Origin: Azolla caroliniana
Lineage: Eukaryota > Plantae > Polypodiophyta
Length of the DNA stretch: 64,000 nucleotides
Direction: 5' to 3'
Assembly (NCBI GenBank): GCA_043228905.1
Contig: JBHGNT010000002.1
Location: 7,130,001-7,194,000 of the forward strand
Under the pieces are notes generated by a model. It was not told the DNA's origin, made no database searches, and saw only the letters and a program-made list of their open reading frames with translations. Of the stretch, positions 3,314 to 57,743 are shown in pieces. Each line of letters starts with the position of its first letter. Position 1 is the first letter of the stretch. The translations under genes and the position numbers were made by a program.

Positions 3314-4958
3314 ATCTCTTATCGTCCTCATCCGCAAAGGTACTCCCTTTTTATGGACCTCGGTGGCACAAAACGCGTTTGACTCAAACAAACATTCATC
3401 ACTGCCCATGTGCTTCTACATGCCAACCCCAAAAGACCCTTCCAGGTCGAAACCAATGCCTCTGACTTCACCATTGGTGCCACCTTATCCCAGGCAAATG
3501 ACCCAAGCACCACACACCTAGTGGCTTACTAGTCCCGAAAATTCATTGCATCTAAAATCAATTATTTTATCTACGACAAGGAGCTTGCTACTATCATTGT
3601 TGCCTATGAAGAATGACGCCCATACTTGGAAATTGCACAACATCGTGTTCAGGTAGTGACTGATCATAAGAATTGAGTCTATTTTTCCACCATTTGTACT
3701 TTGAATCGAAGGTCTGCCCGATGGTCAACATTTCTCAGTGACTATGATTTTGAGATCGTATTTCGACCTGGTCGACAACATGGGAAGGTCGATCCCCTTT
3801 CTCATAGAGCCGAACTTCCAATCTGCCTATGGGATGCCGCTTATGCTCAACAATCTCGATGTTTGCTAAAACCCAACCAATTGCATCTTTTGCCACTTGT
3901 ATGTTACAAGATGATTCCTTACTCCAACAAATCACTGATGCATCCACAATCGATATGTTCACTGACGAGATTCGAGATAGTCTTCAAAACCATTCAAGGT
4001 GACCAAAAGGACGGACCTTGACCACTTCACCATACCAGATGATTTGTTATTCCAAGATCGTCTCTTATACGTCCCGAAGGGCTCATGTCGCACCCGGGTG
4101 TTGCGGGAATGCCATGATGACCCACTTGCGGGTCATTTTGGGGCCGCAAAAACCCTCGAACTAATCTCTTAGGGGTATTGGTGGCCACAACCATGGAATT
4201 TGGTCAAAGAATAAATCAAGACTTGTGATGTTTATGTTGTCATGAGGATTTTCGTCTATGGTGAGAAAACCCGGGCGGGATGAATAAAATGGGGATGTGC
4301 AACATTGCACGTCCACTTGATAGAATTGTAAAATAAAGTAACAAATGTAAAAGGAAGGGTAGAATGTAAGGTGCTAAAAGTGCACTACAAAGTTTGTGAA
4401 GTGTAAAGGTGATGTGTACTTAGGGGCTCATGCCCATGTAGACTAAAGGGGAGTCCATAGGAGTACGGATGTAGTGGGTAGTGGCATAGAGTGTGAGGGG
4501 AGAGAGTTAAGGCCCCATCAATCTATAATCAAGGGGAATATTCCCTATTAAAAGAAGGGGATTTGACCCCTCCTTATGTAATGTGCCTCACCCCTTACTA
4601 CTATAAAAGGGAGCGAGGGGTCACTTTAGAAGGGCTTCCACTTTGGGGTTTCTTTGGGTCGTCATTTTGTTGGTTTGGGTAGACCATTAGGGTTTCGGAT
4701 CTTAGGATTTCGGGTTTAGGGTTTCGGTTAGGGTTTCATCTAGCGGTTTACATTCGGCCTACACGGCCATGGTTCTAACTCATGTGGTGTTTTTGTAATA
4801 TAATCATTCAATGGATCTTTACTCGGTTAAACTCTCAAGCTTCCTTCCCTTTCCTCAATCCCTAGTCCAAGATCCCCGCGGTTCCGTCCTACCCGACACG
4901 CACGCGCAAATTTCCACGACATCTTTGATGAACAAGACGTGAAGGGCGGCCAGGGAGA

Positions 4959-5600: not shown

Positions 5601-7246
5601 TGAAAAGAGGGTGGTGAGTGACTACGCACTACCACTAGGAGAGAGCTCATTGCGTAAGGGTTCGGAGGAGTTCAACCTAGAAGTATTGGTACGGGAAGCA
5701 TACGAGATCTTGAAGAAAAAGGTCGAAGCCGAAGAAGGGTTTATTATGGAGTCGAGCATGAGAGGATCAGAGGACGGGGCAGAAGACACCTCCCTAAGCA
5801 GGAAGGACAGGGCCTATGAGGAGGCCGAAGAACGGTGGTGGAGTTCGACGGGAGAGGGTGCAAAGCAAGCCACCCTCTCGACTTGTGGAGGAAGACTGAG
5901 CGAGGATAAGGTCAGAATTGGGGAGGCAAAGGTTGCAGGTTCGGAAGAGGTCTGATGGTTTCGGGCACGGTGGTCTGAAACGTCGCTTGCATAATCGATG
6001 ATGAGATGGCCACGGAAAATGGCGTCTGGATGAAGGTGGCTTTAGCCAAGTTGTCGGCGAGTGATGGTACTGGGACATTCCCCACACCGATTCTAGAGAC
6101 TTGGGCAGTCAGGCCCGAAAGCCAACGTGAGACCGGAGAAATGGAAGGTGGCGGCAGGGAAGCGAAGGACAAAAATGGTGATATGGGAGACGGTGCAGAG
6201 CGAGCGACCCTCTTGTCTTGCGGAAAAAGGACGACCATGGAGAAGGTCGGGGACTACGGAGCAATAAGCGCCACTTTGAGAGTGGGCGGAAGTTTCGGGA
6301 CACGGTTGCCCGAAAAATCGAACGAGGAGGAGGCAAGCGTAATCGAGGCTTGCGTAATCGAGAACGGGGTAGCCACAGACAACGGCGTCCAAATGGAAGT
6401 AGCTCCGGACATGACATCGATGAGCGAGGGTGCCGGGACTTTGCCCACACCGGTTCTAGAGTTGCGGCAATTCTCGGGTGCGCTTGGGTTGTGACACCTC
6501 GATGTGCCGAACTTGAGGGGGAGAGAAGTCCAGGAAGACCACGGCAAGGAGCAAGAAAGGAGCGAAAAAGACCGTTACGCCGAGTTGGATGACAAAATCG
6601 ATTTCGGGTCGGCTGAGGAAGCCGAGGGCGGATCTGCAAAAGAGTTCGAAAGTGGACGTGAGGGCAATAGTCAAAAAAAAGAGCCGAATCCAGCCAAGCA
6701 TGGGGGAGATGAAGCCAACTCGGATGAGAGCGAAAACCGATCGCAGGAAGCCAATTCGGTTCGGATGTTTGATTCAGAGACGCTGAATCAACCAAGGGCC
6801 AAGCGGAAGAAAGGGCAGTCGAAGAGGCGCCAACACCGCAACAGCAAGGGAGCTGAGAAGGGTCACACAAGCACACACGCTGACCGGAAGGGTCGAGGTG
6901 CGCGGAATCGAACAGGTCGAGGAGCGCGAGCGAGGCGTGAAGCTAGAAGAAACCGGAGCGGTGATCCGAAAGAACCAGAAGAGCCTCAAGTTGAGCTTGA
7001 GGGGGAGTGTTGAGATACAAGCTCAACATTGCCCGGATCGGTTGTGCAAGCCGAGAACCAGATCGGTTGGGACCGATCGGTTAGGCCGGACCGGTGCATA
7101 AACCAGGTGCGTAAACCGGTGCGCAACAAGAAGCCGTAGCAGTGCGTAAACCACAAGGCTGTTGGAAAGATATTCCCCGTAGGAATATATTTTGGGAGTT
7201 AGTGTAGAGCTCATTTATGAGCATTAAAGTACGTGTCAGTACTTCA

Positions 7247-7681
7247 TGTTAACTCTTAGGGCTAGACAATGGCCTAACACAGGGTGTCTACGGAACACAC
7301 TTCACCAAAGGGATGTTACGGCAAGAGGATTAGGCTCAACGATTAATCCGACTTAATTAGGTTACTTAGCAAGATCGTCCTTAATAATCACACGCGTAAG
7401 ATATAACAATGAATGCAGAACGGCAATTAACACAAAGAGATAAAAAACATTAAGCTTTATTAATTAACCGCTCCTCATTACATTGCATCCGGGCCTTTAA
7501 ATAGGTTTCCGGTTTGTAGTACAAAACGGTGCCATCCGCACCTGTTCAGGATCGGTCTGGATCCGGAACGGCATACCATTCCGGTCCGTCCGTCCACACT
7601 GATAGCTTACTTACAACCATTCCTTAATAATTAAATAACTCCTTCGTTACACACTCTGGACTCCTTTGCCGGCCAGTAACA
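7247..7681 (-). repeat. 3' LTR of the Gypsy element
   Basis: Direct repeat of 17437-17872 with TG...CA ends. Confidence 0.95.
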
Positions 7682-7683
7682 CA

Positions 7684-7700
7684 TGGCACGCCCGTGGGAC
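7684..7700 (+). promoter_or_regulatory. tRNA-Arg 3'-end-matching site at the position where the PPT should be
   Basis: tggcacgcccgtgggac, 2 nt from the LTR; matches the Arg-type PBS TGGCACGCCCGGTGGGAC (recalled) with one gap; no purine tract on the element strand. Confidence 0.7.
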
Positions 7701-7736
7701 AGTACCTTGTACGTCGAATCCACCATCCGACCCTTG

Positions 7737-10700
7737 CTATTCTTCGTCCAAAATATCCAGAATGCTTTGTTCAAGAGTCTCCAATGGTTCATCTGGAATT
7801 GGTTGTGGTTGTTGTTGTTGTGGTTGCTGCTGCTACTATTGCTGCTCCATTGATGGCTGCTGCGACTGGTCCGTTGGTGGCTGTTGCGACTGCTCCTCCG
7901 TTTGTCGCTCTGACACCGGCGTTTCCGTCGTTGCTCCCACCATCGTAGTGGTCTCCGATTGACTAGTTCCGGCCTGGCCCTCGGCCGGCGACGGTTCCTC
8001 ATCACTAAGGTTAATCGTTGCCGCTTCCCCTGCTTTTTCTTCCCGAACCCGGGACCGCTCATAGCTTTCAAACTGGATTTGAGCGTCCAGCCTATCATCG
8101 TCTAGCTGAGCTACGAGTTGCCAGACCTGTACCAGTTGTTCATCCGCCAGGACTTGGAAGTCTTCAGCCAGCTCGTCCCGTATGGCGATGAAGTCCTCGG
8201 AAGTCAACGTGTAACAATCATCTCCTTCCTTCCGCCGGTTTGCCACGTCTGCCCGTAGCAATTGGAGTTCTGTCGTATTTTGTGCCCACTTTGTCCACCA
8301 TCTTACGGAGCTTTCGTCAATCAAGCGTTTTGTCTAATTCAGCCATGCCCGGAGGATGCACTGAATCCGGCCCGTTCCCATCTGCGATTTGATCTCCGCA
8401 GCTTGCCGTTCCTCCTTCAATTGCTTGATGATTTTGACGTTGTCTTCCGCCTGCTCCTTGTAATGCGTCAATTGCCTTTGATATGTGCTTTGTAATTTTT
8501 GCAATACCGTTGACGCTCTCTCCATTTCTTCCTGCTGCTGCCTCTGGACCTCCATCCGGACCTTCTCCGCCTCGTCCAACCGTCTTGTATTTTCCGCTCA
8601 TTCGTCGGCGAGCGCCGTCGCCGCCTGATCAACTTCCTTCTAGAGCTCGGCCACCCGTTCCTTATGCTCCGTTTCCAGCCGTTTGTAGTCCCGGTGCAGG
8701 TGCTCAAAATCATCTGTCTTTTGTTTGAGCTATGCGTTGATCTGTCGACGGGCCCGGTTCTCGCGGTCCTTCTACTGGCGGAGCTCCTCCTTTAGCCGTT
8801 CAATTTCCGTTTCCGCCGTCTTCCGCAGGTTGTCCTTTTCTTGCAGCACTTTGTCTTTTTCCTCCCTTAGCCGGTCGTAAGCTTGATGGCCTTTCCAGAG
8901 GCTCTCCTCTGTCTGGCGGAGGTTCTCAGCAGTCTTCTTTAATTCGGCTTCAGCCGCTGTCTTCAATTCCCGTTCACGGCTCCTTAGCGCTTCTTGTGCG
9001 GCAAGTTCATCTCTCAATTCTGCAAGCTCCCAGGCTTGCGCCACATCTCTCTCTGGAACGGTTTCCGTTGTCGGGGTCTTATTAGTATGTACAGGTTGGT
9101 CTGTTCCTTTATTCTGTACAGTTACCAGAGTCATCGGTGATTGGATCTGTGTTGCTGTTAAGGCCATTTTGGCCATTTCTGCCATGACCTGATCCAAGTC
9201 TTTTTCAAGGCACCGGATTCTGGACCGGGCCGTCTCTAGTTGTTCGGTTGTGACGAGCAACCGTTCGCTTTGCGCTCTTTCTTCCGCCTCAATATACCCC
9301 ACTGCTCCGGCAATCTGTTCGCCTATCCACCGGAGCCACAGGCTACCGGTGCATTGTTGTTGCGCTTGCATGGCGGTTTGACGGATGGGCTCGCTTGTGG
9401 ATGGGTGGTCCCGCCTGATTGCGCCGAGTTGCAATTCCGTTTCTGCCCGTGGACCATCCTGCTGTCCTGGTTCCCCTTGCGCTTCTTCTTGGTTGGCCGA
9501 GGGAGGCTGCATTGACCTTTCTGGCACTGGCGGAATGGGACTTGCCGGTGCTGCCGGTGGTGCAGGGGCTTCTGATTCCGGTGCCATGCGCGCCGGTTCC
9601 GGTTCCTCCCTTGGCGTGGGAGTCTCAGTATGGGGAGCTGGTGTTCCCTCCGTCTGAGGGTCCAAACGTTTCCCGGCTGCCTCAACGGTCCTTGCCGACG
9701 ACCGTCGCTGGAGGTGCTCTGTAGGCTCCTCCTCTATTTCCTCTTCCTGAGTCCCGGTATTGAGTTTCGCCGCCAAGGGGTTCGCTTCTCTATTCACCGG
9801 TTGGCGGAGTGTGATCTTTACGGGCCGTACCGGTGATTCCTCCTGCGTATCCGTTGGCCGCTTCCGGCTGGCGCTCTCCTTTCCCGCCTGTTCTGCGTCC
9901 GCCGCCTTCCCCTTAGTGGCCTTAGAGGCCAACAACTGTTGTCTTTTGGAAGCAGTCTTTGGGGTGCCGTCCGCCACTCTTCCCCGCTTCTTGGGCTCGA
10001 TGGGCTCAACGGATGGCACAAGCAAGGTGAGACACTGCGTTACTACGTGCCATATCCTCCGTCCGTCTCGGCCTTCTTTGCCGTCTTTTCCTCTAACGAT
10101 TTCGATCGCCGCACACAAACCGTCTGCGATCAATACCGGCCAATCCACCTTGATCCCTTCATAGGTGGCGATGATCATCCTTGCCCGGTTCTGCGGCATG
10201 ACAGGGGGTCTAGGGTACACATGGCCGTATTCGTGGAGCACACGGCCAATCTCGCGGAACAACATATCTCCACCGCCTTGTGTCCGATAGCCCTTGCTGG
10301 CTAGGGAGTACTCACCAAAATACCTGATGAGTTGCTCCGAGGTCGGATTGTCAATCGTGAATATGCCTCCCTCTGGAAGGCCTGTTAACGCACGAACCGC
10401 CTCATCCGTTATGACCTCTGTGTCAATTTCCTTGATCACCTTGTCAGCTTCTTTGTGTGGCAGTGCCTCCATAATCGTCAAGAAGCCCTCGAGCCCGTGT
10501 AGCTTTAGCCATTTCTTGGCGGCTTCCGACAGCGTCTGCGGGTCCATGTCTGTGTCGAGGTCGGATTGTGGTGGTGAGGTTGGATGCTGATGAGAGTGAG
10601 AGTGACCGAGAGAGAGTTCAGAAAGCGGGGGTTCTCTGTGCGTAGGTTCTCGTTTGATGATCTTCCAACGCCTTGGTGCTTCTGTGCTCCTGGGTTCGCG

Positions 10701-10844
10701 AAAGTAGAGGGTCTCCATGCGCAGTGGTTTTTCTCTGTGCATTCTGGCGCCTTTTTCGAGCGTGTGTACTAAAATAGCATTATGTGATGTGGCAGCCCTT
10801 AAATGCCTACTACGTACCTTTTCGCTCCTCGCTCTCTCGTCCAT
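7737..10844 (-). pseudogene. Extra ORF 3' of pol (690-aa open part 8772-10844, continuing through stop/frameshifted pieces 8334-8771 and 7836-8324); globular N-terminal domain, Pro/Glu-rich linker, long coiled coil
   Basis: ORF track; heptad-rich E/K/R/Q segments; sense orientation between integrase and the 3' LTR. Confidence 0.7.
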
Positions 10845-10937: not shown

Positions 10938-12154
10938 TTATCGGCTCGTCGTCTCGGTGGTTGCCGTTTCCGCACTGGTGTCGGTCCTTTGCTCAAATGG
11001 GTTCTTGGGCATCGGTTCTCTATATGGCTTCAATCTGAATCCGTTGACCCATTTGCCTAGCACTTCGCCGGCAAGTGTTCCTAACTGGTAGGACCCATTA
11101 TACTCACGTGTCAGCCAATACGGGCCGGTCCATCTAAACCGTAGTTTACCCGGCATCTTGCCCATCCGGGTCTGAAATACTAACACCGGCTTGCCGATTC
11201 CGAACATTTTTTCATTTCCTTTCCTATGCCGGTCGACAAATGCTTTCCGTCGCCGTTGTTCCAATTCTAAGTGCAGGATGCTTGCCAGTCGTTGTTCCTC
11301 GAGTTCACACAGCGTTGTTAACCGTATTGCCTCCAACTCCTTCTCGTTCAGCCGTTCCCGTAGCTGGATCCGTAAGCTTGGTACTTGGAATTCCACCGGC
11401 ATGACCACCTCTAGTCCGAACGCTAACCGAAACGGTGTTGTTCGGATGCTCGTTTTGTATGATGTCCGGTATGCCCAAAGCGCGCTATGTAGCTTGGTAT
11501 CCCAATCCGTTCGGTTTTCGTTGACGATCTTCCGGAGGATATTCTGGAGCGTTTTGTTCGTCGACTCAGCTAACCCGTTTGCTTGCGGATAGTACGGTGT
11601 GCTCCGTTTATGGACAACGTCATAGAATGTCGTCAGGCTTTCAACTACTTGGCCGAGAAAGTGACCCCCTTGGTCGCTTATTAATTCGATAGGGCATTCG
11701 TAACGGCACCAGATGTATTCGTATAGAAATTTTGCCATTGACACAGCGGTGTTGTCTCTTAAGACTTTGGCATCCACCCATTTCGTGCAGTAATCCGTCG
11801 CGACGATGACGTACAGATTACCTGTTCTCATTGCCGGTGGTTTGAACGGTCCAACAAAGTCCAGCCCCCACTTCTGGAATGGTTCGAGTGGTAGTACAGG
11901 CTGGTGTGGCATCCGAGCCTGCTCCGTTGGCTGGCCCATTCGTTGGCATAGGTCACATTCTCTTGCATACCGTTGTCGTGAAGATTTTCGTCCACGAGCA
12001 GAAACCCGAGCAACGAGAGCCAAAGAGCGATGTGCAACGTTGCACACGTACATAATGTATTTGTAATAATAATAGGGGAAAAGGGTATGGTGCTAGAAAT
12101 GCCCCATAAGATCCCTAAGGTATAAAGGCGATGTGGTCTTGTGCGCACATCCAC

Positions 12155-12198
<44 letters not shown>

Positions 12199-15100
12199 CT
12201 ATGCGGTACATAGGTACCTAGTTGTTTGTGAGGAGGTGGGAGTTAAAGGGCCATCAATCTCACCCTCCCCAAATCAAGGCAAATATCCCCTTTGAATGAA
12301 AGGGGATATTTTAGTCTCGTTTTTGTAAACGGTCTTCCCTCCTTGTGCTATAAAAGGAGAGGGAAGGCACCATTGTGAGGGTTGCCTATTTTGAGTGTGC
12401 GAGGTATACCACATAGGTCGAGCGTTAGGGTTAGGGTTTCTTTATCTTTATCTTCATCTTCGTCGGTTAGGGTTTCAAGTAGTCGTTTGGTGCGGTCTAT
12501 GCGGCCACCATTTTGTAATCGTTCATTTCGTTTTAATACATCTGGTTGATCATCTTGTCTCCATCTTCCTCTTGTTCAATCTAATCTCTTGTTCATTCTT
12601 CTTCTTCTTGAGCAAAGCTTCCATTCCATGTCCGATTCCTTCTCCTCTACTCCTTAGTCCAAGACCCCCATGGTCCCACCCTTCTCCACGCACGCGCGTA
12701 GCAACGCGACACCGTACAGCATCTCTTAATGTCGTTGGCCACCATAGGCCACTTTGCCATATTTTCCTGGCCGTCGCATCTCCGGCATAGTGACCTCCGG
12801 CAACTCCGCAGTGGGCTTCCCTCAGTATGAGGTCCTTTTCATCGCTGCGCACAGCCCGTCTCCATATGTCGTTCGCGCCCTTGTGGTAAAGTGTGTCTCG
12901 CAGTAAGCAAAAATGTCGGCTTTGCAACGCCAGGCATTTCCTTTTGTCCCGGTTCATCTCCTCCGGAGGCAGTCCAGTGCTCAAAAACTGGTGCATGTTT
13001 GTGAGCCACTTGTCTTCCTGTGCCACCGATTCATCTGCTGCAGTTTCCGTAGTGACTCGAAATAGCTCCGCATCCGGAAACTCGTCCGCTACTCCGTCGC
13101 CCGTCTCTCCGGACTCTAGACGGCTTAAATAATCCGCTACGGCATGCTGTATACCGGGTCGGTGGAATATTTCGAACTCGAATTCTTGTAACAGTAAGGT
13201 CCACCGGGCCAACTTACCGGTGAGTGACGCAGTGCCGAATGATCTACATGGAAGGAAAACTTCCTTCCCAATAAATAATGTCGAAACTTTGTCACACTGT
13301 AGATCATCCCTAGGGCTTCCCGTTCCGTGGTAGAGTAGTTTCGTTCCGCTTGGGATAGCTTTCGGCTGGCATAGTACACTGGCCGGTACCACTTTGGCTC
13401 CGTAAGCCGCATCAATGCGCTTCCGATTGCGATGTCGGAGGCGTCCACGAACACATGAAATTCTTTACTCCAATCCGGAGGTTGCACTACCGGTGCTTGC
13501 AACAATAGTACCTTGAGGGCGGTATACGCCCTATCCTCGGTGGTCATCCACTGGAATGGTGTTCGATGTACCGCGGCATGCAACGGTGTAGCCAGGTCGG
13601 CCAAGTATCAGAGCATCCGGCTGTGCCACCGGATCAGACCTAAGAACCGGTTCAATGCCTTTGCCGTTACCGGCACTGGTGCTTCTAATATGGCTTTCAC
13701 TTTGTCCGGGTCAACTGCAATGCCTTCCTAGCTCACAATATGTCCTAGTAGGGTTCCACTGGACACGCCAAATACACACTTCGCCGGATTCAAGCTTAGC
13801 CGGTAAGCTCTACACTTTTCTAGACAAAGACGGAGGTGCTGAAAATGATCCTCTTCCCGGCTATAGACGGCGAAAACGTCAAGGAAAACCTGCATAAAAG
13901 CCGGGATATATTGACCAAAGATTTCCATGATGATTCGTTGGAATGTTGCCGGTGCCGTTTTGAGTCCGAACATCATCACGACGGCCACAAACATCCCCCA
14001 TTCGGTGACGAAAGCCGTTTTCTCTTGGTCGTCGGGGTGCATCCGGATCTGATTATACCCGCTAAATCCGTCTAGAAAGCTATAGACCTCATGGCCGGCG
14101 ACAGCATCCAACACTCCATCTGTGAATGGAAGTGGAAACGCATCCGTTACCGTAGCCGCATTGAGTTTCTGGTAGTCCACACAAACTCGAATTTTTCCGT
14201 TCTTCTTCGGTACGACTACGATCGGGCTCAGCCATGTCGCTTTCTTTACCGGACGGGTAAAGCCAACTCTTAGCAGTTTGTCGATTTCCTCCTTGACTTT
14301 GGCGGCATAATTGGGATTCATCTGGTACCGTCTTTCTGCCACTGGTTTTGCGTCCTTGCTCAAGTGAATCTGATGCTGGTATAAGCATGTCTTCGTATGA
14401 CCAGGCAAACATGTCGCGAAATTCCGTGAGAAGTGTGATCATCGTCGTTTTGTCTTCGGACTTCATCTCCTTGGCGATGTGCACCGGTTTTGCTTCGTCC
14501 GTGGTCCCTAGGTTCACCTCTTCAAGTTGCGACGCTTTTACGCGCTGTGAAATGGTCATTTCCCGTTCCAACGCTTCCTGCGCTTGCCGTAACTCTCGGA
14601 TTGCGTCCTTATCCGGTTCTGCTTTAGTCTCTTCCGGCTGCAGTAAGTATGGTGCTACTGCTTCGGCAATGTCAATTTCGAAGAGGGGTACGATCTTCGG
14701 GTTTTTCCTACAATTACTGAGCTTCTTCTTTGTCAGATAACCCTTCTAGCATGTTGACGCACTCTACATACAACGGTGTACATTCCTTTCCAGTGCTCGT
14801 CCTTGGCAGTGTTGGTACCCGTACCTTGGTTTTTCCTCGCCGGAAGGTAATTATATTTTTCCTCCAATTCTGTTTGATATGTGCCGTTTTCAACCACGGC
14901 CGCCCCAGCAATAGCGGGTATGCGCCTTGTGCCTGTAATTGTAGCACTACTGTCGAGATGTGAAATGTATGACCGCCAACGGTGACTTCTAATTTTCGTA
15001 TTAATCCTGTCGACCGCATTGAGCTTGTATCAGCCATCCATAACCAGAACAGACATGGCTCCCACTCGTGGATTCCCAGGGCATCACACGTCCAGAGGCT

Positions 15101-15292
15101 TATTACATTCACACAGGAGCCTCCGTCTATTACTGTGCCGGGGAGTTCTTTCCCTTTTACAATGGCAGTGATTACCGGATTGTTGGTGTCCACCACCGTT
15201 GGTCCCTCCTTCGGATTCGAGAAGAGTACTGGTGCCGATGATGATTCTCCTGCCGTCATGGTCATCTTCAGTCCTTCCGTGAATCTCGGCAC
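10938..15292 (-). pseudogene. Gypsy pol (protease, RT, RNase H, integrase), disrupted
   Basis: PR VIDGGS (14714-15292); RT LDGFSGYNQI...FGLKTAPATFQR...FLDV (DD mutated); RH VFVDASD; IN AHCGVAGGH...CDLCQ, WGLDF, ISDQG, GLAE and GPY; frameshifts and a solo LTR at 11974-12711. Confidence 0.9.
11974..12711 (+). mobile_element. Solo LTR related to the 4238/19057 LTRs, 4-bp TSD CCGT, inserted in integrase
   Basis: TGTCGTGAAGATTTTCG...CGACA; ccgt at 11970-11973 and 12712-12715; removal restores DAVRYARECDLCQ. Confidence 0.9.
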
Positions 15293-15325
15293 GAGCTATA
15301 GGAGTCTTCCTAGTGGCAGCGTAAT

Positions 15326-17393
15326 CTAGCATTCTTGCAACGCCAGCCATGTCTCGTTCTCGGAGTGACTGCCGTCGGCAAGCCCTATGGTGTTCTCCTT
15401 TTGCCACTCTAAGTCTGTTATGTTTTGCTCGTTTTCTTTCCTCACCCATTCCGTCGCTTGCTTCCGGATGGTCTCCTGCGTCTCCCATTCCTTGGCCATG
15501 CCCTTCGATCTTGTGGTCACTTGTTGCAGATCTGCCACTTCAGGTACTACCATATTTACTGCCGGTCGTTTGTCATAGCTCTTCGCCGGGCATTGATTAC
15601 TATAATGGCCTTCCTGTCGGCAGTAGTAGCAGTAGGCTTTCCGGGTATTGCTGGATTCGGCATTGTTTGTTGTATCCGGGGCAGGTCCTGTGGTAAGCCC
15701 GGGGTTTTGGGCCGGTTGGCTGCTTGAAGCTCCTTGTTCCGGATCCCGTGGGTGGCCGCCTTTTTTGAAATGCCGTTTTCTGTTATAGTTCTTCTTATTG
15801 CGGTACTCTTGACGAGGTTGGTCGTTATATCTGCCATATTCCTCCCGTTGTTGACGATACTCGGGGGAGTGCTCCCGGTCGTAATGTTCGTATCGTCTAT
15901 TGTAATCCCGGTACCAATCATATCTATCATACCGGTCATAGTTATCCCGCCGATCACCGTACCGGACATCATTCTCCCGTCGATCGCCATACCGGACATC
16001 TTGTGCCGGTCGGTCGCGGTCCGTTTGCCGCCAGCGTTCCTCTTCTTCATCCCGGCTGCTGCGTGGCTCTATTTGTCGGACGGGCGGTGCTTGCTGGTTC
16101 AATAGATTATACTCGCACCTATCCGTCGTATGGCCCTTGGATTGACAGATTACACATTGCGTCCTCATAGTGCATTCTAGTGCCGAGTGTCCGGAATTCA
16201 AGCAGGTTGTGCACTGTATTGCTTGCCGAAACCGGAGGTCTTCATCGGATGGTAACGCCCGTTGGAGTGCTCCCAGTGTGAGCCAGGAACTTGTCTTTTC
16301 CATCTCTCTCACCCGGTCAAGGACCTGGTCGATGGTACTTGCGCGGAAGTCAATTACCGTGCAAACCGTGCGTAGGGGTTCCCGGAGCGCATTTAGGAAT
16401 ATAGTCCGTAATTCCTCCTCCGGGGGTGCGCGGGCAAGTTGACTATGCATCCGTTGAAACCAGATGACGAACTGAGGAATGCTCTCCCCTGCCTCCTGTC
16501 GGATGGTATAAAACAAGCCCACCACTACTGTCTGGTCCACCTCCTTTTGGAGAAAATGCAAGAATTTAGCTTTTAAATCTGCGAAGGTGGTGATGGTAGA
16601 CGAGTCCTGCGTCCGGCGCCATCTTGCTGCCGGTCCCTCCAATGTGACGCCAAATTCCGCTATCTTAGAGCGTTCCTCTTCCTCCGAGGTCAATCGCTGG
16701 GACACATGGTTTGCTTCCTATGTCTGTTCAAAGGTGTGAACATGAGCTTCCGCGTCCGGGTCATCTCTATACTTGGAGTACTGGAACGGCATGTTGTCGT
16801 CCGGTATCGGTGTGCGGGCTGGTGGTATTGGTGGTCGTTCCTGGTTTTTCTCCGGCGTCAGTGGTCTTTCCTTATTTGTCTCCTGCGTTGGTGGTCTTTC
16901 CTCTTCTTTTGGTGATGGAGGCCTCTCCTCCTCGACTTCCGGTGTCAGAGGTCACTCTTCCTCTGCTTCTGGTTCCGGAGGTTCCAGCCTTAGCACTTCC
17001 GGTTCCGGTGTCGGTAAGGTGTCTGATCCTTCGTCCTCTGGTCCGCCCGGGGTGTCGTTACTGCTACGGTAGTTCGTGTGCACGTTGTATCCCTCTTCGG
17101 AATCCGATTCATACGCTAAAAAGGCTTCTACGTCGCCTTCCCCACTTGCCAACACCTGGAGAAGGGATTCGGTTTGCCGAAGGCTGCTTAGGCTGCTGCC
17201 ATCGTTCGGGTGCGATGTTTGCTGTAACCGGAGGGACTCCTCCACTACTCTCCGGATTATGTTGGAAAATGAGCGATCCGCTCTAATTTCCTGTGCCACT
17301 TGCTGGAAAGCCTCACGTCTCCTTTGCCTTTCGGCAAGGCGTCGAGTTCGATCTGTAACCAGGTCGTGCGTTGATCTAGTCATCCATTCATGC
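15326..17393 (-). pseudogene. Gypsy gag (459-aa open part 15326-16705, upstream part broken) with three CCHC zinc knuckles
   Basis: Retrotrans_gag-like LEGPAARW...LKAKF; CTTCLNSGHSALEC, CVICQSKGHTTDRC, CYYCRQEGHYSNQC. Confidence 0.85.
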
Positions 17394-17419: not shown

Positions 17420-17429
17420 GTGGTCGCCA
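17420..17429 (-). promoter_or_regulatory. PBS, probably tRNA-Arg(UCG) type
   Basis: Minus strand: LTR-CA, spacer cagtttt, then TGGCGACCAC (10-nt match to a recalled tRNA-Arg end ...GTGGTCGCCA). Confidence 0.6.
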
Positions 17430-17436
17430 AAAACTG

Positions 17437-17872
17437 TGTTAACTCTTAGGGCCGGACAATGGCCTAACACAGGGTGTCTACGGAAGACACTTCACCAAAG
17501 GGGTGTTACGGCAAGAGGATTAGGCTCAACGATTAATCCAACTTAATTAGGTTACTTAGCAAGATCGTCCTTAATAATCACACGCGTAAGATATAACAAT
17601 GAATGCAGAATGGCAATTAACACAGAGAGATAAAAAACATTAAGCTTTATTAATTAACCACTCCTCATTACATTGCATCTGGGCCTTTAAATAGGTTTCC
17701 GGTTTGTAGTACAAAACGGTGCCATCCGCACCTGTTCGGGATCGGTCCGGATCCGGAACGGCATACCGATTCCGGTCCGTCTGTCCACACTGATAGCTTA
17801 CTTACAACCATTCCTTAATAATTAAATAACTCCTTCGTTACACACTCTAGACTCCTTTGCCGGCCGGTAACA
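17437..17872 (-). repeat. 5' LTR of the Gypsy element
   Basis: Direct repeat of 7247-7681. Confidence 0.95.
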
Positions 17873-20800
17873 CTTCAATGCTCATAAATGACTTCTATCA
17901 ATCCATATGGACTTGTATAAAAGTGCTCATTGAGCACATTCTATGTACAGACTGAGTATTATTTTTTTAATAGATTTGTGTGTATTGACTCTCTCTCTCT
18001 CTCTCTCCCCCCCGCATACTCTATGTGTGTCCAAGCTCTCCATTAAACCTGTGTTTTCCTACGTTCTGCTTTCTGTTGCTTCCGCACGTTGTTCTTTTCA
18101 CACGAAGAATGCACTACGGCCGCTTGAGGGCCAAGGAACAAGCATGCATCCGGAGGAGCCGCAACGAGTGACCAACGATAGCAGTCGAGTCGAGCCTTTG
18201 AGAAGCAAGTACGAGACGAAAGATAGAGCGGCGAGGTGCCAAGATCAACGGAACGAGTTGAGCGTGATTGGCATGAGCGGAGGGTTGTGTCTAGGGAAAC
18301 AGAGGAGGTGCGTGGAGAACGAAGGGCTACACACTAGGAAGAGCAAACACGGCATCCCGAAGGATGGGTGGGGCCGAGCGGGCCGAGAGGGTGTGCATCA
18401 AGATGAAGTGGTAACGAGATCCACGAAGGACACCGAAGCGGAGAACCACGACATGGATGTTGGGATGGAGGTGTACTCTATCCTGAGAGAGCACCATGGG
18501 CAAGGGAGATACGAGGAACGTGTGACATGGTCACGTAAGGACCTAAGAACGAGTGTGTATTCGGAGGTCGACATCGACGCACAGGTAGAGCCTTCGAAAG
18601 GCACGCATGGAATGAAGGGAGACGGCATGCCGAGGTGCTTGGGACGAGGAGACAATTGAGCCGAAGGAGGAACACATGTGTTATGCGAGGGGTTGTATCC
18701 GACATACAATCGGAGTGATCAGGAGTCCAATCGGATGACGTGCACGGTGGACAAAGGAAGAGAGATCGAATCAACGACTCCTTTAGGGAGGTCTACTGCG
18801 ACCAGCTGGGGAGGAAGGTGTGAGCATCGGATATGGTAAATCGGATGGAGCCAACGGTTCGGGGACATGTGGCGGATACAGTGGATCGGGAGGCTATGGT
18901 AGTTTGTATGGGAAGGATGGGCATGCTCGAAATGGAAGACGAAGTCGATCGAGGTCAACAAGGGCGTAAAGGAACCCGGTTAATCACCATTGCCAAATCT
19001 CACATCTTTCCCTTTCTTGGCACATACCGGTGGATGTGCGGTTTGGTGGGGGTGGATGTCATGAGGATTTTCGGCTATGGTGAGAAAATCCGAGTGGGAT
19101 GAATAAAATGGGGATGTGCAACATTGCACATCCCCTTGATAGAATTGTAAAATAAAGTAACAAATGTAAAAGGAAGGGTAGAATGTAAGGTGCTAAAAGT
19201 GCACTACAAAGTTTGTGAAGCATAAAGATGATGTGTACGTAGGGGCTCATGCACATGTAGACTAAATGGGAGTGCATGGGAGTACGGATGTAGTGGGTAG
19301 TGGTATAGAGTGTGAGTGTGAGGGCTGAGAGATAAGGCCCCATCAATCAAAGATCAAGGGAAATATTCCCCATTAAAAGAAGGGGATTTGACCCCTCCTT
19401 ATGTAATGTGCCTCACCCCTTACTATTATAAAAGGGAGTGGAGAGGTCACTTTTGAAGGGCTTCCACTTTGGGGTTTCCTTGGGTCGCCATTTTGTTGGT
19501 TTGGGTAGACCATTAGGGTTTCGGGTTTAGGGTTTCGGTTAGGGTTTCATCTAGTAGCCATGGTTCTAACTCATGTGGTGTTCTCGTAATATAATCATTC
19601 GATGGATCTTGTCTTGCCTTTAATCTTAATCTCTTCGATCTTAACCTCTCTAATCTTAACCCTTCTACTCGGTTAAACTCTCAAGCTTCCTTCCCTTTCT
19701 TCACTCCCTAGTCCAGGACCCTCGCGGTCCTGTCCTACCCGACACGCACGTGCGGATTTCCACGACAGTGCTCGCTCCAAAGTCGCTCATCATTGGGCAT
19801 ACGGCTTACTCTAGCCACCTCCATTCCCAAGCCTTCCTTGGGCCTCTATCTCTATGGACCTCATAACAGATCTACCCTTGGTCAATAGTTATGTCTCTGT
19901 GTTGGTTATTGTCAAAGATTTTACAAAGATGGCTCACTTCATCCATGCTCAAAAACCATTTCCAGTGAAGGAATGGTGCATCTATTCCTCAACAATGTGG
20001 TTTGTTTGCATGGACTCCCCAACCATGTCATCTCCGATCGCGGATCCCAGTTTGTCTCTCACTTCTCGTAGCGCCTGCTGTAAACTTTAGGTTGCCATCT
20101 CTATCAAGTTATCCTCTGCCTATCACCCCCAAACCAACGCCTACAATACCTCGTCTTGTGGAAGGTTACCCCATGTCTGACACCACGTGGGAACCAACGA
20201 AGAATTTACAAAATGCCCTAGAGGTGGTCCAGGATTTTCATCACCGGTATCCCCACAAACCGGCAACCGGTTTGGGAAGACAGTGTAAGAGGGGGGATAA
20301 TATCACATTCTAGATGTGAACCTCTAACCTACAACACACCCAATACATAGTGTTAGATAAACCATATGGAAAATCTTAAGTTATATGTGAACTTATATAT
20401 GTTTTAATATTGTATAGTTTAGCATATAGTACATTTGAGAATATTCTAGCCTTTAGTATATTCTAGAAATATTCTATAGTATATTTTAGACGGGTATATT
20501 CTAGAGATATTTCTTGGGTATATTTTAGAGATATTCAATTTCGGAACTTGTATAAATATGTGTGTTCACCTAGAGTACAATCAAGGTGAACAACGCCAGT
20601 TACGGAGTCTTTCAATTCATCAACTCATCCATTTGATTTTCTTCTAGTGTCTTGTGCATATTATCTATCCATGGCAGACATCAGTGGTGCAGTCTAGGAT
20701 TTCGTCACAACGGTCGTGTTAATCTCTTCCAAGGTATTAGTCATCCTAATATCTGGCAGTATGGGACGTTGGTGATAGGTTGACTATGTCTAGATCATAG

Positions 20801-35880: not shown

Positions 35881-36758
35881 AGTCAAATAAACACAAACCA
35901 AGAATGCTACTGTTTTGTGGTTTGTAAGTTTGAATAAAAAACATTATGACTTTGTGAACGCGTAACTTAAAATAAACTAAGGACATTCCCTCAACCTCAA
36001 AGATGTGTTTGAGTATTCTTTGCAACTGCTATGACTATAAAGCGGAGCTAGCATACTGAAACTTTTGCCCCAATTTTAACATGATTATGTAAACCATGTT
36101 CAAAAACCAGTTATAACCCACTAAGAAACATAGTTTAATATTGCTGCAATATTCGCTGAGTTCTTTCACCATCCTTTATAAGATTTGCCTTGATCAATCA
36201 CATCTAAATCAGAACTAAAGAAAACCAGTTGTTTTGTCCTGTTCAGCAAGATCTTGTGCAAAGGGGGGCATAATAAATGCCTTGTCAGTAATTGACAATT
36301 GAGAGAGATGCAGAACATGGTCAAATGCAAACAGAGTAGCAATAAAAGGTTGAGCAAAATGAAGAAAACAGATTGCAAAAGAGAATCAAATTATTAATTG
36401 ATGATATAAACTTAAAGCATTTAAGTGATTATGGTACAAGGAACCTTTCTGCTTCATTTAAATCACACATTCCCTAGAGACGTATGTTTTACGTGTATTC
36501 TGCACACTGTTCTCTTTCTTCTAGTCCTTGTACACATGCATTGTTGATCTTTTTCATCCAGAAACATTTTCCATGCGTAAATATATAATTGTTTTCTTTC
36601 TTCTAGCAACAATTCAATGCATATAAACATATGCATTGTTGTGATCTGTCTCTTTGAAAAGCAATTTCAATGCATACATACATACGTTATTGATCTGTTC
36701 ATTCCAAAAGAAATGTCTTTCCATACATGCGTACATTATTTTCCTTTTTTCTTTTCAG

Positions 36759-37117
36759 AGTATGCCTATACAATGAAAGTCACTGAAAAGAGTGACATAT
36801 ACAGTTTTCGAGTAGTTTTGCTAGAGCTACTTACAGGTCAATACTCAGTCCAACCTCAGAATCAAGAAGGAGATCTTGTAACTTGGATAAAAGAATGCAT
36901 TGATCTTAAACGAGACCTAAACGAGATCTTTGATTCAAAGCTACACATAAACGATCCGCTAATTGTTGATGAAATGATACTCACATTGAAGATTGCATTT
37001 CTGCGTACGAGATTTCTGCCGTCCGAGAGGCCTACGATGAGGGAAGTGGTTCGGATGCTGGCTTCAGTGAGAAAGCCTGCAGGGACAGAGCCGCCCTGTC
37101 GAAGTGAATCGCCATAG
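36759..37117 (+). pseudogene. Orphan terminal exon of an LRR receptor-like kinase (subfamily XI-like)
   Basis: Acceptor ttttcag then EYAYTMKVTEKSDIYSFRVVLLELLTG...ERPTMREVVRML; conserved G and C changed to R; no upstream kinase exon between 35880 and 36758. Confidence 0.75.
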
Positions 37118-38709: not shown

Positions 38710-39329
38710 GCCTCAATTTAAATTTTAGACCAAGCATGTATATGAAAATGAGAAAGCATACATTTATAGTTTCTCATTAATGTTAGCATATTCAACAAAT
38801 TGTCTTCTAATTGTCTAGCAATACTCAATGATATAGTGAACATTGGCTTCAAATATTAATCTACCGGTTCATAAAGGCATCTTAAATGGGAATAGTCCAA
38901 ACTAAAATCATTAAATAAGTGACAATACTTAATAAGCAATTCAGCTAAATGGAATATTAATTCAGAAAGAGATGGCTAAAGTATTCTCATGATACCTAAG
39001 TTATAGTGTCTTTCAAAAAAAAAAAAATCCATAAAACATATGCTCCATTGGTATTAATAAAAGGCCAGAGGCAGAGCATGGCGAGAAGAGGAAATGGCGA
39101 GCAGGAGCAACACGGTGAGGAACGCGAGCGCTGGTTAGCTGTGTGCCGCTGTCCAAGAACTTGGCCGCTCGTCAGAGGCTGTTCGGCTGCACAGAGTGCC
39201 TCGAATGAACCACATTGCTTGTGAGCTTACCTACCCCTACAGTGTCAGTTACGTTCTGATTAGGGAATAAGACTAAGTGTAGAGCACTAGAGGATAAGGG
39301 AGCCTAAGGGCTGCGGGATACAAGAAAAC

Positions 39330-40904
39330 ATGGTGGCAAGGGAGCCATCTGAGGGTGGTAAAGTAGACTCAATGTCATCGATTAAAGTATCAGCGGCAAG
39401 GGTGCCGCCCGTGCGGTGGGTGGAGTCGAGGTATGCACTACAAAGGATGGTTAATGGCCGCGAGAAGCAGCAAGTTGGGAATTTGGAACACAAGGAAACA
39501 AGTGACGATTGGAAAGTCGTAGGGAATCATATTAATGGAGGTGCTGGTAGGATAGGTAAGGATTCAGTGAATCAAACAGATAAGAGGGGATGGATGAAAG
39601 AGATGATTAGGGCTCCTTCCAGCAGTATGGCTACAACCCTCTTTGCAAATGATGGCATTGAGGATTCACGAGTGTGGGGAGAAGCGGAGGTTTGGAAAGT
39701 AGATGCACGGAAGCAAGAAGCTGGAGGAGATCATGCCAACCTTGCATCATGGCAAATGGATGAAGAGGGAGTAGAAGAGGGGCAGCGGGGATTGCAAGGA
39801 GGATCGTCTCAAGGGTTGCCTATGGTGGAGAGTGAGGCCAAAGAGTACACGTTACAAGTGGAAAATCTTTTGAATGAATGTGGTCAGGCACATAATGCAC
39901 ATAATACATGCACGAGAGGAGATGATGATAAGGATTTGAAAATGGTGGAGACTTCCGATGTACTGGATGTTTTTCTGTCCGAAGAAGAAAGTACAATCTT
40001 AAATGCCGAGATCAAAAGATTAAAAAAATGTTTGTTCATTTGTAAGCTATTTGGTGGTAGGCCCAACAGAGGTATGGTCCGTGATATGCTACAAGTAGCT
40101 TTAATGGATAAGGTCCCACATATAAAGCGTGTGGATAATATGGGTCGAAATTTCTTTCACATTGAAGTGAACGAAGGGAGTGATGTATCGCAAATTATCA
40201 ATATGAAATGTGTAGAACTCAAATACGGAAGAGCTTTGTTGTTGGAGTGGCATGCTAATTTCAATGTTATGGATGAGGCTAAGAAAATTGGTAATCCCAT
40301 GGTGATATCTATGGTATTCCCTAATCTGCCTCGACACTTATATCCGTTGATGCAAAATATTGGGGAGAAGATTGGCACAATTTGTCCTTCCAAGGCATCC
40401 ATGGTAGACAAAATCCGAGACTCCCCTAAGATTAGGGTGCTTGTGCAAAGTTTGTCCACACTTCCCTCCCTAATTAGAGTGCATGATGTGGAGGGAAGAT
40501 TGATAGATGTGGAGGTGGAATATGAGGGTTTACCTGGCCAATGTTTCTATTGTAAAAGAAAGGGTCACATTGCCAAGGAATGTCCAAGGAAGATTAATAG
40601 AAATGTAAGGGGGGAGAAGGATACTGGGCTGTTAGATAAGCAAGAACCGATAAGGGAGTCAAGATTGAGCAACCTCATTGGGGCTGAGAAGGCGAACAAT
40701 AGTGCAAATGGTTGGACTCATGTTTCGGGACGGAAAAATGGCTTGCAACGAGAAGTAAACACGAATACACCTCATGCAGATTTGAGAAATTGTTTTGAAG
40801 TGTTGCAAGAAGAGGAGGACCTAGCACAAGATTCAAAGAAAACTATTGTTGAAGAGGTGGTAAGTATGTACACCCGAGGTCATGTTAAAAAGTGGAACAC
40901 TTAG
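39330..40904 (+). CDS. LINE ORF1 (DUF4283/RRM-like region plus CCHC knuckle), 524 aa
   Basis: ICKLFGGRP...MGRNFF; VEYEGLPGQCFYCKRKGHIAKEC. Confidence 0.85.
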   Translation: MVAREPSEGGKVDSMSSIKVSAARVPPVRWVESRYALQRMVNGREKQQVGNLEHKETSDDWKVVGNHINGGAGRIGKDSVNQTDKRGWMKEMIRAPSSSMATTLFANDGIEDSRVWGEAEVWKVDARKQEAGGDHANLASWQMDEEGVEEGQRGLQGGSSQGLPMVESEAKEYTLQVENLLNECGQAHNAHNTCTRGDDDKDLKMVETSDVLDVFLSEEESTILNAEIKRLKKCLFICKLFGGRPNRGMVRDMLQVALMDKVPHIKRVDNMGRNFFHIEVNEGSDVSQIINMKCVELKYGRALLLEWHANFNVMDEAKKIGNPMVISMVFPNLPRHLYPLMQNIGEKIGTICPSKASMVDKIRDSPKIRVLVQSLSTLPSLIRVHDVEGRLIDVEVEYEGLPGQCFYCKRKGHIAKECPRKINRNVRGEKDTGLLDKQEPIRESRLSNLIGAEKANNSANGWTHVSGRKNGLQREVNTNTPHADLRNCFEVLQEEEDLAQDSKKTIVEEVVSMYTRGHVKKWNT

Positions 40905-41625
40905 ACAAGAATCTACCATGGGCTCCCCTTCCTCTATTGGTAAAAGTGGAAGTATGGGACTGAGAGCAATGAAAGACTGGCTGCGTAATGGGAGATGTCA
41001 AGAAAGCTCACCCAACGCTCCTGAAATTAAGTTGCAAGCAGTGGGAGAAAGAAGTAAGGAGGCAAATGTTAGAGTTCCAATCAAATTTGTTAGGTCAAAA
41101 ATATTGGAAGGGGACATGCTGGACAAGGGATATAGGTTTAGTCAGCAAGCTCTCACAAGACTGACAGATTTGTCACAAGGGGAAGCTCTAGGGCTAAGGG
41201 TTTATGTAATTGTTGCTGAACGAAACAAGATGCCGGCTATAGGCTTCTCTTTTGATCTAACAGACCTAGAGGTTACAACTAGTAACATGCCACGGATCTC
41301 CAACTTTATAGAAGTCAAGGCACACAAATACTTTCGCAGCCTACCTATCAATTGGAATGGAGATAATTGGAGGTTGATGTGGTTGAATGCTGGAATGATA
41401 TGTGGGAGTTTTCATAATTCTTGCATTAAAAAACAGATTTTACTATGCCTAGAGGAGATGATAGACCCTCTTGATGAGGTGTTGCACTTCCATGAGGAGG
41501 AAATGGCTGAAGCTACAAGGCAAGATGTTGTTTTAGGATGGGAGAGGATCAAGTCGGGAGGTTGGGCATGGGCTAGTGGGGAGGGACTATGTCCGGCTTG
41601 GGAGACCTCACAATTGTTCTCATGA
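40882..41625 (+). CDS. LINE middle ORF of unknown function (or frameshifted ORF1 C-terminus), up to 247 aa
   Basis: Open frame between ORF1 and ORF2; its TGA overlaps the ORF2 ATG (ATGA at 41622-41625). Confidence 0.5.
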   Translation: MLKSGTLRQESTMGSPSSIGKSGSMGLRAMKDWLRNGRCQESSPNAPEIKLQAVGERSKEANVRVPIKFVRSKILEGDMLDKGYRFSQQALTRLTDLSQGEALGLRVYVIVAERNKMPAIGFSFDLTDLEVTTSNMPRISNFIEVKAHKYFRSLPINWNGDNWRLMWLNAGMICGSFHNSCIKKQILLCLEEMIDPLDEVLHFHEEEMAEATRQDVVLGWERIKSGGWAWASGEGLCPAWETSQLFS

Positions 41626-44600
41626 AATTAATCACGTGGAACATACAAGGTCTAGGCGGTAGCAAATGTATGTTGGAGAGGAAGAACCTCCGCCAAGAGT
41701 TCAAATCCCCTAGCTTTAGGGGGATCCCAGACATTTTGCTCTTGCAAGAGCACCATTTGAGTGCGAACAGAATCTCGAGTATTGGCAATCCTCTAGCGGG
41801 GGATTGGCATACTATTTGGTCCCCAGCGCAAGGTGAGCATGGTAGAAAAGGGGGTGTTTGTACATCTATTAAGAATAATCCAGATATAATTGTTGTGGGC
41901 CAAGGCACCATCGTGGAGGGACGTGCCATCTATGTGACAATCAGATGGCAACAACGTATCATTGGAATAATAAATGTGTACGCGCCCAATTCGACAGTGA
42001 TGCGGGCCCTTTTTTGGAGGCAATTGGCTGATGGATTGCCGATGGCAGATGCATGGATCCTCGCAGGGGATTTTAACATGACTATGCACGCAGAAGACAA
42101 GGTGGGGGGCATGCATACGGCGGTGCAGGGGTCAGAGCTAGTTGCATGGGATTTGTTGATGGGCAGAATGGGAGTGAAAGATGCTTGGTATGTACTAAAA
42201 AAGCCTCGGAGCTCATTACGCTTCTCAAGAGCAGGCTGTAATATAAATGGCTATTGTATGTCTCGCATAGACAGAATATACATAAGCTCGGAACTGGAAA
42301 AATATGGCAGCAATGTTGAAATCATCGCAGGTTCAGCTTACTCTGATCACATGCCGGTTTCGATTACGTTGGTCACTCAGAGGCTGAACAAAAGGGACTG
42401 CAACTTAAGGATTAGTAATAAGCTTTTTGAGGATGTGGAGGTGAGAAGTAAGATAAGGAGTATATGGGAAAATAATCTAGTTGGTTGTGGTGCTTTGGAT
42501 AATCTTCAAGGAAAGATTATTGAAACTTCAAAGTATTTGCATGAAGAGACTAAAAATAGATTGGAGAGATCTAAGGAAAGAGAGGTGAGACTAAGAAGAT
42601 CGATAGCGGCTGCCCAAAGAATGCTCCAAAAAAATCCCAAGTGTCTTTGGTCAAGATCAGGTTTGGAGGCTGCCAAAGAAACACTACAGCGGCTGATTGT
42701 GTCAAGAAATAAGATGGTATTCAGGAGTTCAGCAGCTTGGTGGAGTAGGAATGGGGACAAGGTGAACCAAGAATTTTTTAAGTTTAAAAAACCGTGCACA
42801 ATTGGTAACTTCATTCCTAAATTGATCAAGGAGGATGGTTCACTGTCAGAAGATGTATCAGAGATCATGGAGGCAGTCACATCTCACTATAATGGGCTAC
42901 TATCAAATAATTATAATCTCCCAGACCAGCCCTCACTGGCAGAATTTGTATTGGAGGGAATGCAACCAAGAATTTCAGAGGTTGCACAAGTTAAGTTGTC
43001 AGGGCCACTCTTGGAAGAGGAGGTGTCAGATGCTCTGGCAAGTATATGTAGAACGTCTTGTCCAGGAGATGATGGATTATCAAAAGATTTTTATGAAAAT
43101 TTTTGGGAAATAATTAAGGTTGACCTGGTTTCTGGACTAAATGAGGCATGGGATGATGGGTACCTCCCTGAACATTTTAAAGAGGGACTAATATTTCTAA
43201 TTCCTAAGGTAAAGGGTATAGTATCAGATGTGAGGCAATGGAGACCGATTACGTTGCTCAACACAATCTATAAGATTTTTGCTAATATGCTGGCCAAGAG
43301 GGTCAAACCCCACTTACATGCGCTAATTAATGTTGGACAAACAGGATTCATGGAAAATAGATGTATAATCGATAATGTGTTGACCTTTTGGGAAGCGATA
43401 GCCCTGGCGAAGAAAACCAATCAACATATTGCATGCCTCATGCTTGACTTTGAGAAGGCATATGATAGAGTACAATGGCCTTTTTTAGACAAAGTCATGG
43501 AGCGGTTGGGACTACCCTCAAAATGGAGAGCAGCTGCGTTGGCGCTTTACAAAGGAAGCTTGAGTAGGGTGTTGGTACTAGGGCAACGGGGCCCATCAAT
43601 TCCATTATGCAAGTCTGTCAGACAGGGGTGCCCATTGGCCCCCTACCTTTATTTATTTATCTCAGAGGCATTCTCTTTCTTTTTAAATAGACCGGATGCA
43701 GGAATTCGAGGTTTGGTTGTCCCACATGCTTGTAAGGACTTGTTGGACTCCATGTATGCAGATGACACCATGCTCTATCTGCAAGGCAATGATGCTAATT
43801 TACAGCAGGCTGAAAATCAAATTGAGTTGTTCTGTAAAGCATCAGGTGGGAAAATTAATTGGAACAAAAGTAGAGGGTTTTGGGTAAGTCCAAACTCTTG
43901 GCCGAATTGGCAACCTAATGCTGATTTTCAATGGGTTCCTAATGGAAGGGCTGTTAAGTATTTGGGCTTTTTGGTGGGAATAGAGATTCAGAAAAATTAG
44001 CAACTTGAGCAAGTGAAAGACAAAATCAGAAAAAAGCTTCGGTTATGGGCATCAGTAAAGCTTTCCCTTGCAGGTAGAGTGGTTGTGGTAAACCATATCT
44101 TGTTGGCCACCATGTGGCACTCGTTGGCATGCTGGATGTTAGATAAAGAGTGCATAAAAAATATTAAGGCAATGGTGAGAGGGTTCCTTTGGTCGGGTAG
44201 AGACCATGAGACTGCTTCAACTAAAGTGGCCTGGAGTTTTTTGATCAAGGCAAAAAGTCAAGGTGGACTTGGGATGGTGGATCCAGGTCACCAAAGTAAG
44301 GCTTTACTTGGTAAGCTCTTGGTGCGAAGTCTCCAACCTGGACCAGAATTGTGGAAATTGCTTCTTAGAGACAGAGCTGAACTCTGGAGTCCGAGGAATG
44401 GCGGCCCTTGGAAGGCAAAGATGTGGTGGTTGTTCAGTCCAGGCCTAACGTTAAAAGAACCTACTAGCATGGAGGATAGGGTGGCCCGCACCATAATGAG
44501 GGCCTGGTCAAGTTTAAGAGAGGGGCTGGTCTTAATGCAGCCAAAAACAATGGAGGAACAACTCCGTCAACCTCTGTTTTGGAACCCCAGGATTCGAAGT

Positions 44601-57700: not shown

Positions 57701-57743
57701 GCGGGGGTTGTGCTCCCTTCAACACCCCGCGACTCAGTTTTCC
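57701..57743 (-). promoter_or_regulatory. Putative -1 ribosomal frameshift signal at the gag/pol junction
   Basis: GGAAAAC-TGA (gag ...SEN*), 6-nt spacer, stem GCGGGGTGTTG/CAACCCCCGC; pol is in the -1 frame. Confidence 0.7.

Follow-up and report, generated by a model that had tools for sequence, protein, structure and literature searches.

A tRNA-Arg(UCU)-like block at the polypurine tract position of a Ty3/gypsy lineage present in Azolla caroliniana, a candidate site for tRNA-primed plus-strand synthesis

Priming in described LTR elements

By the textbook rule, retroviruses and LTR retrotransposons alike initiate the plus strand at a polypurine tract (PPT), as set out in the available sections of PMC5371799 and PMC10886601, and in those of the survey by Neumann et al. 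2019 the PPT appears only in the background and the abbreviations (PMC6317226). The closest solved reverse transcriptase (RT) and integrase are those of Ty3 from Saccharomyces cerevisiae, where tRNA pairing is bipartite and includes the T arm, but where the tRNA serves the minus strand only and the plus strand starts from a 12-nt PPT (excerpts of PMC5371799). In HIV-1, according to the accessible part of PMC13191261, an 18-nt primer binding site (PBS) bounded by m1A58 is accompanied by a second segment that pairs with the tRNA T arm, an arrangement that serves minus-strand synthesis on genomic RNA; the same source describes m1A at position 58 of retroviral primers as blocking pairing and halting RT.

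Architecture and classification of the Azolla element

The window, a stretch of 64,000 nucleotides of Azolla caroliniana contig JBHGNT010000002.1, carries on its minus strand a Ty3/gypsy element of 10.6 kb (17872-7247), with a 5-bp target site duplication (TSD) and a pair of LTRs (17872-17437 and 7681-7247) that are 96.6% identical. The 5′ LTR (17437-17872, minus strand, 436 bp, TG...CA) and the 3′ LTR (7247-7681, minus strand, 435 bp) are bordered by the TSD TGAAG at 17873-17877 and 7242-7246, respectively. The 5′ junction reads TTAACA, then CAGTTTT, then TGGCGACCAC (spacer and PBS, 17420-17436, minus strand), and the PBS (17429-17420), which the sequence-only reading had proposed as separate from the structure at the other inner end, indeed starts 7 nt past the LTR; all 6 relatives in which the search located this junction have it in identical form. 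The distance from PBS to LTR (17430-17436) is 7 nt throughout the window family and 2 nt in L093, the distant relative treated below. The first 12 letters of this PBS equal those of a retroviral PBS quoted in the available part of PMC4724089, where it is labeled Arg or Trp, and a pattern search of viral contigs gave no tRNA matching it.

The gag-pol region (10941-17390, minus strand, start coordinate approximate) retains the order GAG-PROT-RT-RH-INT with frameshifts and an insertion, and is 53-88% identical to the intact family polyprotein P0158. The insertion, about 740 bp in the integrase zinc-finger region (11973-12711), is solo-LTR-like, with TGTC...GACA ends and an apparent 4-bp TSD, and the repeat pair 4238-4921 / 19057-19767 has similar ends. 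An extra 3′ ORF (7738-10844, minus strand, in several pieces including 8772-10844 and 7836-8333), for which no Pfam family was found, stops just upstream of the tRNA-like block. The remnants of gag, RT, RNase H and integrase lie, like the extra ORF, all on the minus strand, and the LTR holds a single AATAAA, at position 222, on the ORF strand and downstream of a TATA-like site at 180; the earlier statement that LTR signals and ORFs all point the minus way is thereby upheld. The element itself is nested in LTR-like sequence (7050-7246 and 17878-18007) that resembles 2108-2238 and 1212-1325, with a TGGTATCAGAGC PBS nearby, at ~1130 on the minus strand.

The window element has two TG...CA LTRs, a TSD, the RT-RH-INT order and a 5′ PBS, but no PPT, and is classified here, from its predicted domains, as a non-chromovirus Ty3/gypsy element. 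The intact family polyproteins P0158, P0163 and P0175 gave no Pfam match to a chromodomain, which separates the family from chromoviruses with their chromodomain at the integrase C terminus, or to an archaeal-type RNase H (aRH), which separates it from Tat (TatI-III, Ogre, Retand). Phygy and Selgy are characterized in the sections consulted of PMC6317226 by a 4-bp TSD, a tRNA-Trp or tRNA-Ala PBS and a size of 5-9 kb, unlike the 5-bp TSD and 10.6 kb found here. The likeness is greater to Athila, which has the same GAG-PROT-RT-RH-INT order without aRH or chromodomain, a 5-bp TSD, a size of about 10-13 kb, an extra 3′ ORF and an AT-rich spacer of several bases from LTR to PBS; nevertheless, Athila is described in the accessible portions of PMC6317226 and 10.64898/2026.03.20.713144 with a tRNA-Asp/Asn (also Ala) PBS and a conserved PPT at the 3′ junction, whereas the window clade has another PBS and no PPT, and in quick trees it falls among liverwort and fern sequences, away from the angiosperm rows. 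In both of these maximum-likelihood trees, with no REXdb references among their rows, a single clade unites the window family with L093 and a few unnamed proteins (SH-aLRT 99 for RT-RH-INT, 41 rows, and 97 for integrase, 34 rows). In the integrase tree, Adiantum nelumboides L7F22_069343 belongs to this clade and L094 and L095 fall outside it; the wider group contains Marchantia, Riccia and Adiantum proteins and is separate from the angiosperm rows, which makes a seed-free plant host likely.

The tRNA-like block and its conservation

On the minus strand, the 3′ junction reads GTCCCACGGGCGTGCCA (7684-7700, from 7700 to 7684), a 2-nt TG spacer (7682-7683) and the LTR start TGTTAC at 7681, which agrees with the initial observation of a CCA end exactly 2 nt from the LTR. 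A polypurine tract is absent from this junction, as had also been noted, the nearest purine run of at least 8 (8031-8024) being located about 340 nt upstream, within an ORF. The segment GTCCCACGGGCGTGCCA corresponds to positions 59-76 of tRNA-Arg(UCU), counted backwards from the CCA end, minus one base, and its complement in the cDNA would constitute a putative second PBS. The proposed resemblance to a tRNA-Arg(UCU) end with one gap was substantiated by pattern search, which retrieved a phage-contig tRNA (L019, called tRNA-Arg(tct) by ARAGORN) whose 3′ end, GTGGGTTCGAGTCCCACAGGGCGTGCCA, is one base longer and matches GTCCCACGGGCGTGCCA in 17/18 letters; for the second match of that search, L020, ARAGORN made no tRNA call. 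The likeness, which had been recognized for 7684-7700, continues beyond that segment to 7723, a part that had been missed. The block 7723-7684 represents tRNA positions 49-76 with a 13-nt insert after position 58, directly after the m1A site of retroviral primers; the insert (7701-7713, minus strand) holds a small internal hairpin and separates the acceptor-proximal part from GTGGATTCGA (7714-7723, minus strand), which is like positions 49-58 (5′ strand of the T stem plus T loop) and matches those of L019 in 9/10 letters.

The last 28 nt of the L019 tRNA are predicted to pair through 27 bases on the cDNA strand of the window while the insert loops out; the energy, -48.7 kcal/mol, compares with -17.1 +/- 4.3 (minimum -33.6) for 3013 other windows of the element, RNA parameters being used as a proxy for the RNA/DNA hybrid. 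With up to 3 mismatches allowed, the motif has a single occurrence in the window, against 0.07 matches predicted by shuffles. ARAGORN called no tRNA gene across the window, nor did Rfam match a tRNA in 7560-7860, a silence that is expected because the tRNA piece is split and only 28 nt long. Two other LTR elements of the same window have ordinary PPTs. A gag-protease-only element (50889-54831) with near-identical 748-bp LTRs and both PBS and PPT is nested in an older, likewise PPT-bearing gypsy element (50120-59171). The window also includes a LINE-type element with endonuclease and RT (39291-45678, plus strand) and a protein kinase exon (36581-37117).

To recover relatives without recourse to the motif, the window piece of the last ORF was aligned with 24 of its 37 matches (25 rows in all); in the 49/64 parts of the collection scanned, this alignment yielded 18 metagenome loci (L001-L018) with about 64-78% DNA identity to the window element. 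Four of the 18 stop before the junction or are interrupted, and 14 extend to it; among these, the motif is present in 13 (exact in 7, with one change in 5 and three changes in 1), L015 carries a 13-nt deletion, and a PPT is found in 0/14, which answers the earlier question of whether sister copies have a normal PPT. Because the 18 loci come from one assembly series and several are collapsed contigs, these figures describe conservation at the subfamily level, not 14 independent insertions. Identity to the window reaches 97.9% in the T-arm part (137/140 letters in the 14 relatives), 96.2% in the insert (175/182), 91.6% in the 17-mer with the deletion counted, and 98.8% in the TG spacer together with the LTR start; directly upstream it falls to 63.8%, and it is 80.0% at the ORF end and 74.6-79.3% within the LTR. 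No relatives emerged from protein scans of viral contigs.

In the four DNA runs, which carry four organism labels, bin 7692-7732 has the top summed contig depth in 4/4, depth not being copy number. In three runs (at least 33, at least 40 and at least 37 contigs) loose contig ends gather at 7723, where the tRNA-like sequence begins, and in one run (at least 39 contigs) at 7678; judged on the loose ends among the matches listed, a minority of copies in the four runs may bear a PPT.

An integrase alignment searched against prokaryote assemblies returned five loci (L093-L097), one of them a whole element (L093, 2954-16714) with 1.65-kb LTRs that are 93% identical, and 61% identity to P0158 over RT-integrase. 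L093 is a single copy without a clean TSD, a eukaryotic element on a contig fused to bacterial DNA. Its 5′ junction reads AACA, CT, TGGCGACTCCGCTGGGGA, an 18-nt PBS unlike that of the window; its 3′ junction consists of a hairpin, TCCACCAGGTGTGCCA, AG and the LTR start TGTTGG, and both inner LTR ends read AACA, CT, TGGC. Thus, despite a different LTR, PBS and extra ORF, in L093 too a CCA end resembling that of tRNA-Arg(UCU) stands 2 nt away from the LTR. TCCACCAGGTGTGCCA is collinear, with a single C-to-T change at a CpG, with an acceptor variant read from the host runs, whose host may differ from that of L093. L093 is without the T-stem hairpin, and its T-arm-like second segment comprises only 5-6 bases; on these alignments, what is common to the window family and L093 is tRNA likeness, not a fold. 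Their extra ORFs have no significant similarity, and that of L093 is fused with pol into a single open frame of 2444 codons. In L094 and L095, with 45-47% identity in integrase, PPT-like tracts, judged independently of the LTRs, follow directly on the integrase stop, and L096 and L097 end short of a junction. A 13-letter pattern found in G001 and G002 only the L093 site, besides control-level matches. Contig C10 of G001 (L121-L124), a prokaryote genome record, is chimeric, with about 22 kb of eukaryotic LTR-element DNA and bacterial genes.

Three readings of the junction were rejected. An upstream PPT would have to rely on purine runs that are distant from the LTR, by about 340 nt in the window and 150 nt in L093; for self-priming, the 3′ block would have to pair with the 5′ PBS, with which it has only 4 letters in common in both lineages; and a mis-oriented element is not a solution, since L093 reads as a PBS from both directions and flipping yields no PPT.

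With the viral tRNA-Arg(tct) gene L021 as bait, alignment of four host DNA runs gave tRNA-Arg(UCU)-like contigs in 4/4. A tRNA-like sequence of the type called for by the sequence-only reading thus occurs in the host DNA runs, but the fit of its best-read variant is imperfect: loose ends that finish in CACGCCT (7 contigs in 3 runs) place the acceptor strand one base and one gap off the family site, leaving 9 contiguous pairs plus 7 past a small internal loop, in readings that are partial and derive from short loose-end consensus strings. In three CCA-bearing copies beside LTR-like ends the alignment is three bases longer, and these copies point to a probable second tRNA variant nearer the family site, with 10+7 pairs. 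Along L021:147-196, runs X3, X4 and X14 contain contigs with an LTR-like AACA end, a 2-5 nt spacer, TGGCA and 37-47 nt of tRNA-Arg(UCU) complement, unbroken and copied beyond position 58, as read in mixed loose-end consensus only. One X4 loose end resembles the family junction and, if it is one, would be the footprint of an unremoved primer.

Proposed plus-strand priming, alternatives and comparison with known systems

The tRNA-like junction feature is real, lineage-wide and under selection. The reading preferred here, with a probability of roughly 0.6, is that a host tRNA-Arg(UCU) anneals to the minus-strand cDNA and primes the plus strand in a clade without a PPT. One tRNA, bound at the usual 5′ PBS, would first start the minus strand; the block would then be copied into minus-strand cDNA, and clearance of the RNA by RNase H would expose a PBS 2 nt beyond U3. 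The last 18 nt of tRNA-Arg(UCU) could anneal there, and a further duplex could form between its T arm and the second segment, the 13-nt insert looping out at position 58 in the manner of the HIV primer activation signal. RT would extend the CCA end through TG into U3, and removal of the tRNA by RNase H would leave a 2-bp extension to be trimmed by integrase. The primer end is most likely defined at CCA because the CCA-U3 gap is fixed at 2 nt in two distant lineages that have no PPT. A family site one base short of the tRNA and a best-read host variant with only 9 contiguous pairs count against priming in trans.

The main alternative is a primer in cis, in which the element's own RNA, mimicking a tRNA end, would survive RNase H, be cut after CCA and act in a PPT-like manner. 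The block sits exactly at the PPT position, and the two T-stem halves fold, in the RNA of the L001-L018 subfamilies, into a perfect 7-bp hairpin that leaves 10 nt ending in CCA; the 13-nt insert, which is not tRNA sequence, is conserved like the tRNA-like parts (96%), and both the insert and the hairpin would fit a cis structure as well. The window version, however, has a weakened RNA hairpin and retains the tRNA pairing through a G-T wobble, and L093 is without such a stem, yet still collinear with the tRNA-Arg(UCU) end, both of which are expected if the tRNA primes in trans; moreover, a cis primer would have no evident reason to follow the tRNA sequence. This alternative is considered unlikely.

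The block may instead be a captured tRNA copy serving another job (packaging, dimerization or tRNA-fragment decoy), with plus strands starting from undefined RNA remnants. Accidental reverse-transcribed tRNA copies beside LTR ends occur in MLV and HIV, according to the part of PMC12220202 consulted, and in host contigs LTR-like ends are fused to long tRNA-Arg(UCU) copies; nevertheless, CCA lies at a constant 2 nt from the LTR in two distant lineages, a spacing that requires the primer to end precisely there, and no PPT is available to set the LTR start, which renders this explanation improbable. Slightly more doubtful still is a model with two RNAs, sense and antisense transcripts, each tRNA-primed at its own PBS and giving cDNAs that complete each other. 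The symmetric inner ends, clearest in L093, and the annealing of tRNA to RNA, as usual, speak for it, whereas the sole AATAAA of the window LTR lies on the ORF strand, and long sense-antisense pairs would invite silencing. A one-off chimera, inversion or chance match in the window copy can be regarded as refuted, since the feature is common to 13/14 relatives and L093, and the TSD and LTRs are intact.

Returning to priming by host tRNA-Arg(UCU), its wider form stands at slightly better than even: a Ty3/gypsy clade of seed-free plants would have abandoned the PPT and would use host tRNAs to prime both strands, the second on DNA via a bipartite PBS with a T-arm duplex like that of the HIV primer activation signal, as the first natural LTR lineage of that kind. 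The feature appears to be undescribed, and the earlier statement that no LTR element is known to work in this way stands for the searchable literature, in which none with a tRNA end in place of the PPT was found, most subscription papers and Repbase reports being outside its scope. Under either of the two leading mechanisms, an abundant and long-lived clade without a PPT indicates that the PPT rule is breakable, and the clade offers a natural system for studying how RT/RNase H chooses a plus-strand primer and how PPTs originate or are lost. A further prediction is that tRNA-fragment silencing would have a second target, on the antisense strand; in annotation, members of this clade could be given the wrong orientation by tools that rely on PBS and PPT for it.

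Among the known systems, the Helenus, Ajax and Cassandra TRIMs are also LTR elements bearing small-RNA-derived sequence, but, in the available sections of PMC10886601, this sequence lies within the LTR as a promoter, with a PPT present and no priming role. In the Mauriceville/Varkud retroplasmids, as cited in the accessible part of PMC12220202, the RT also recognizes a tRNA-like CCA end; there, however, CCA is the 3′ end of the template for first-strand initiation, and neither LTRs nor integrase are present. Bipartite pairing, as proposed for the Azolla element, is also found in Ty3 and HIV-1; compared with HIV-1, the window layout lies on the opposite strand, at the position of the PPT.
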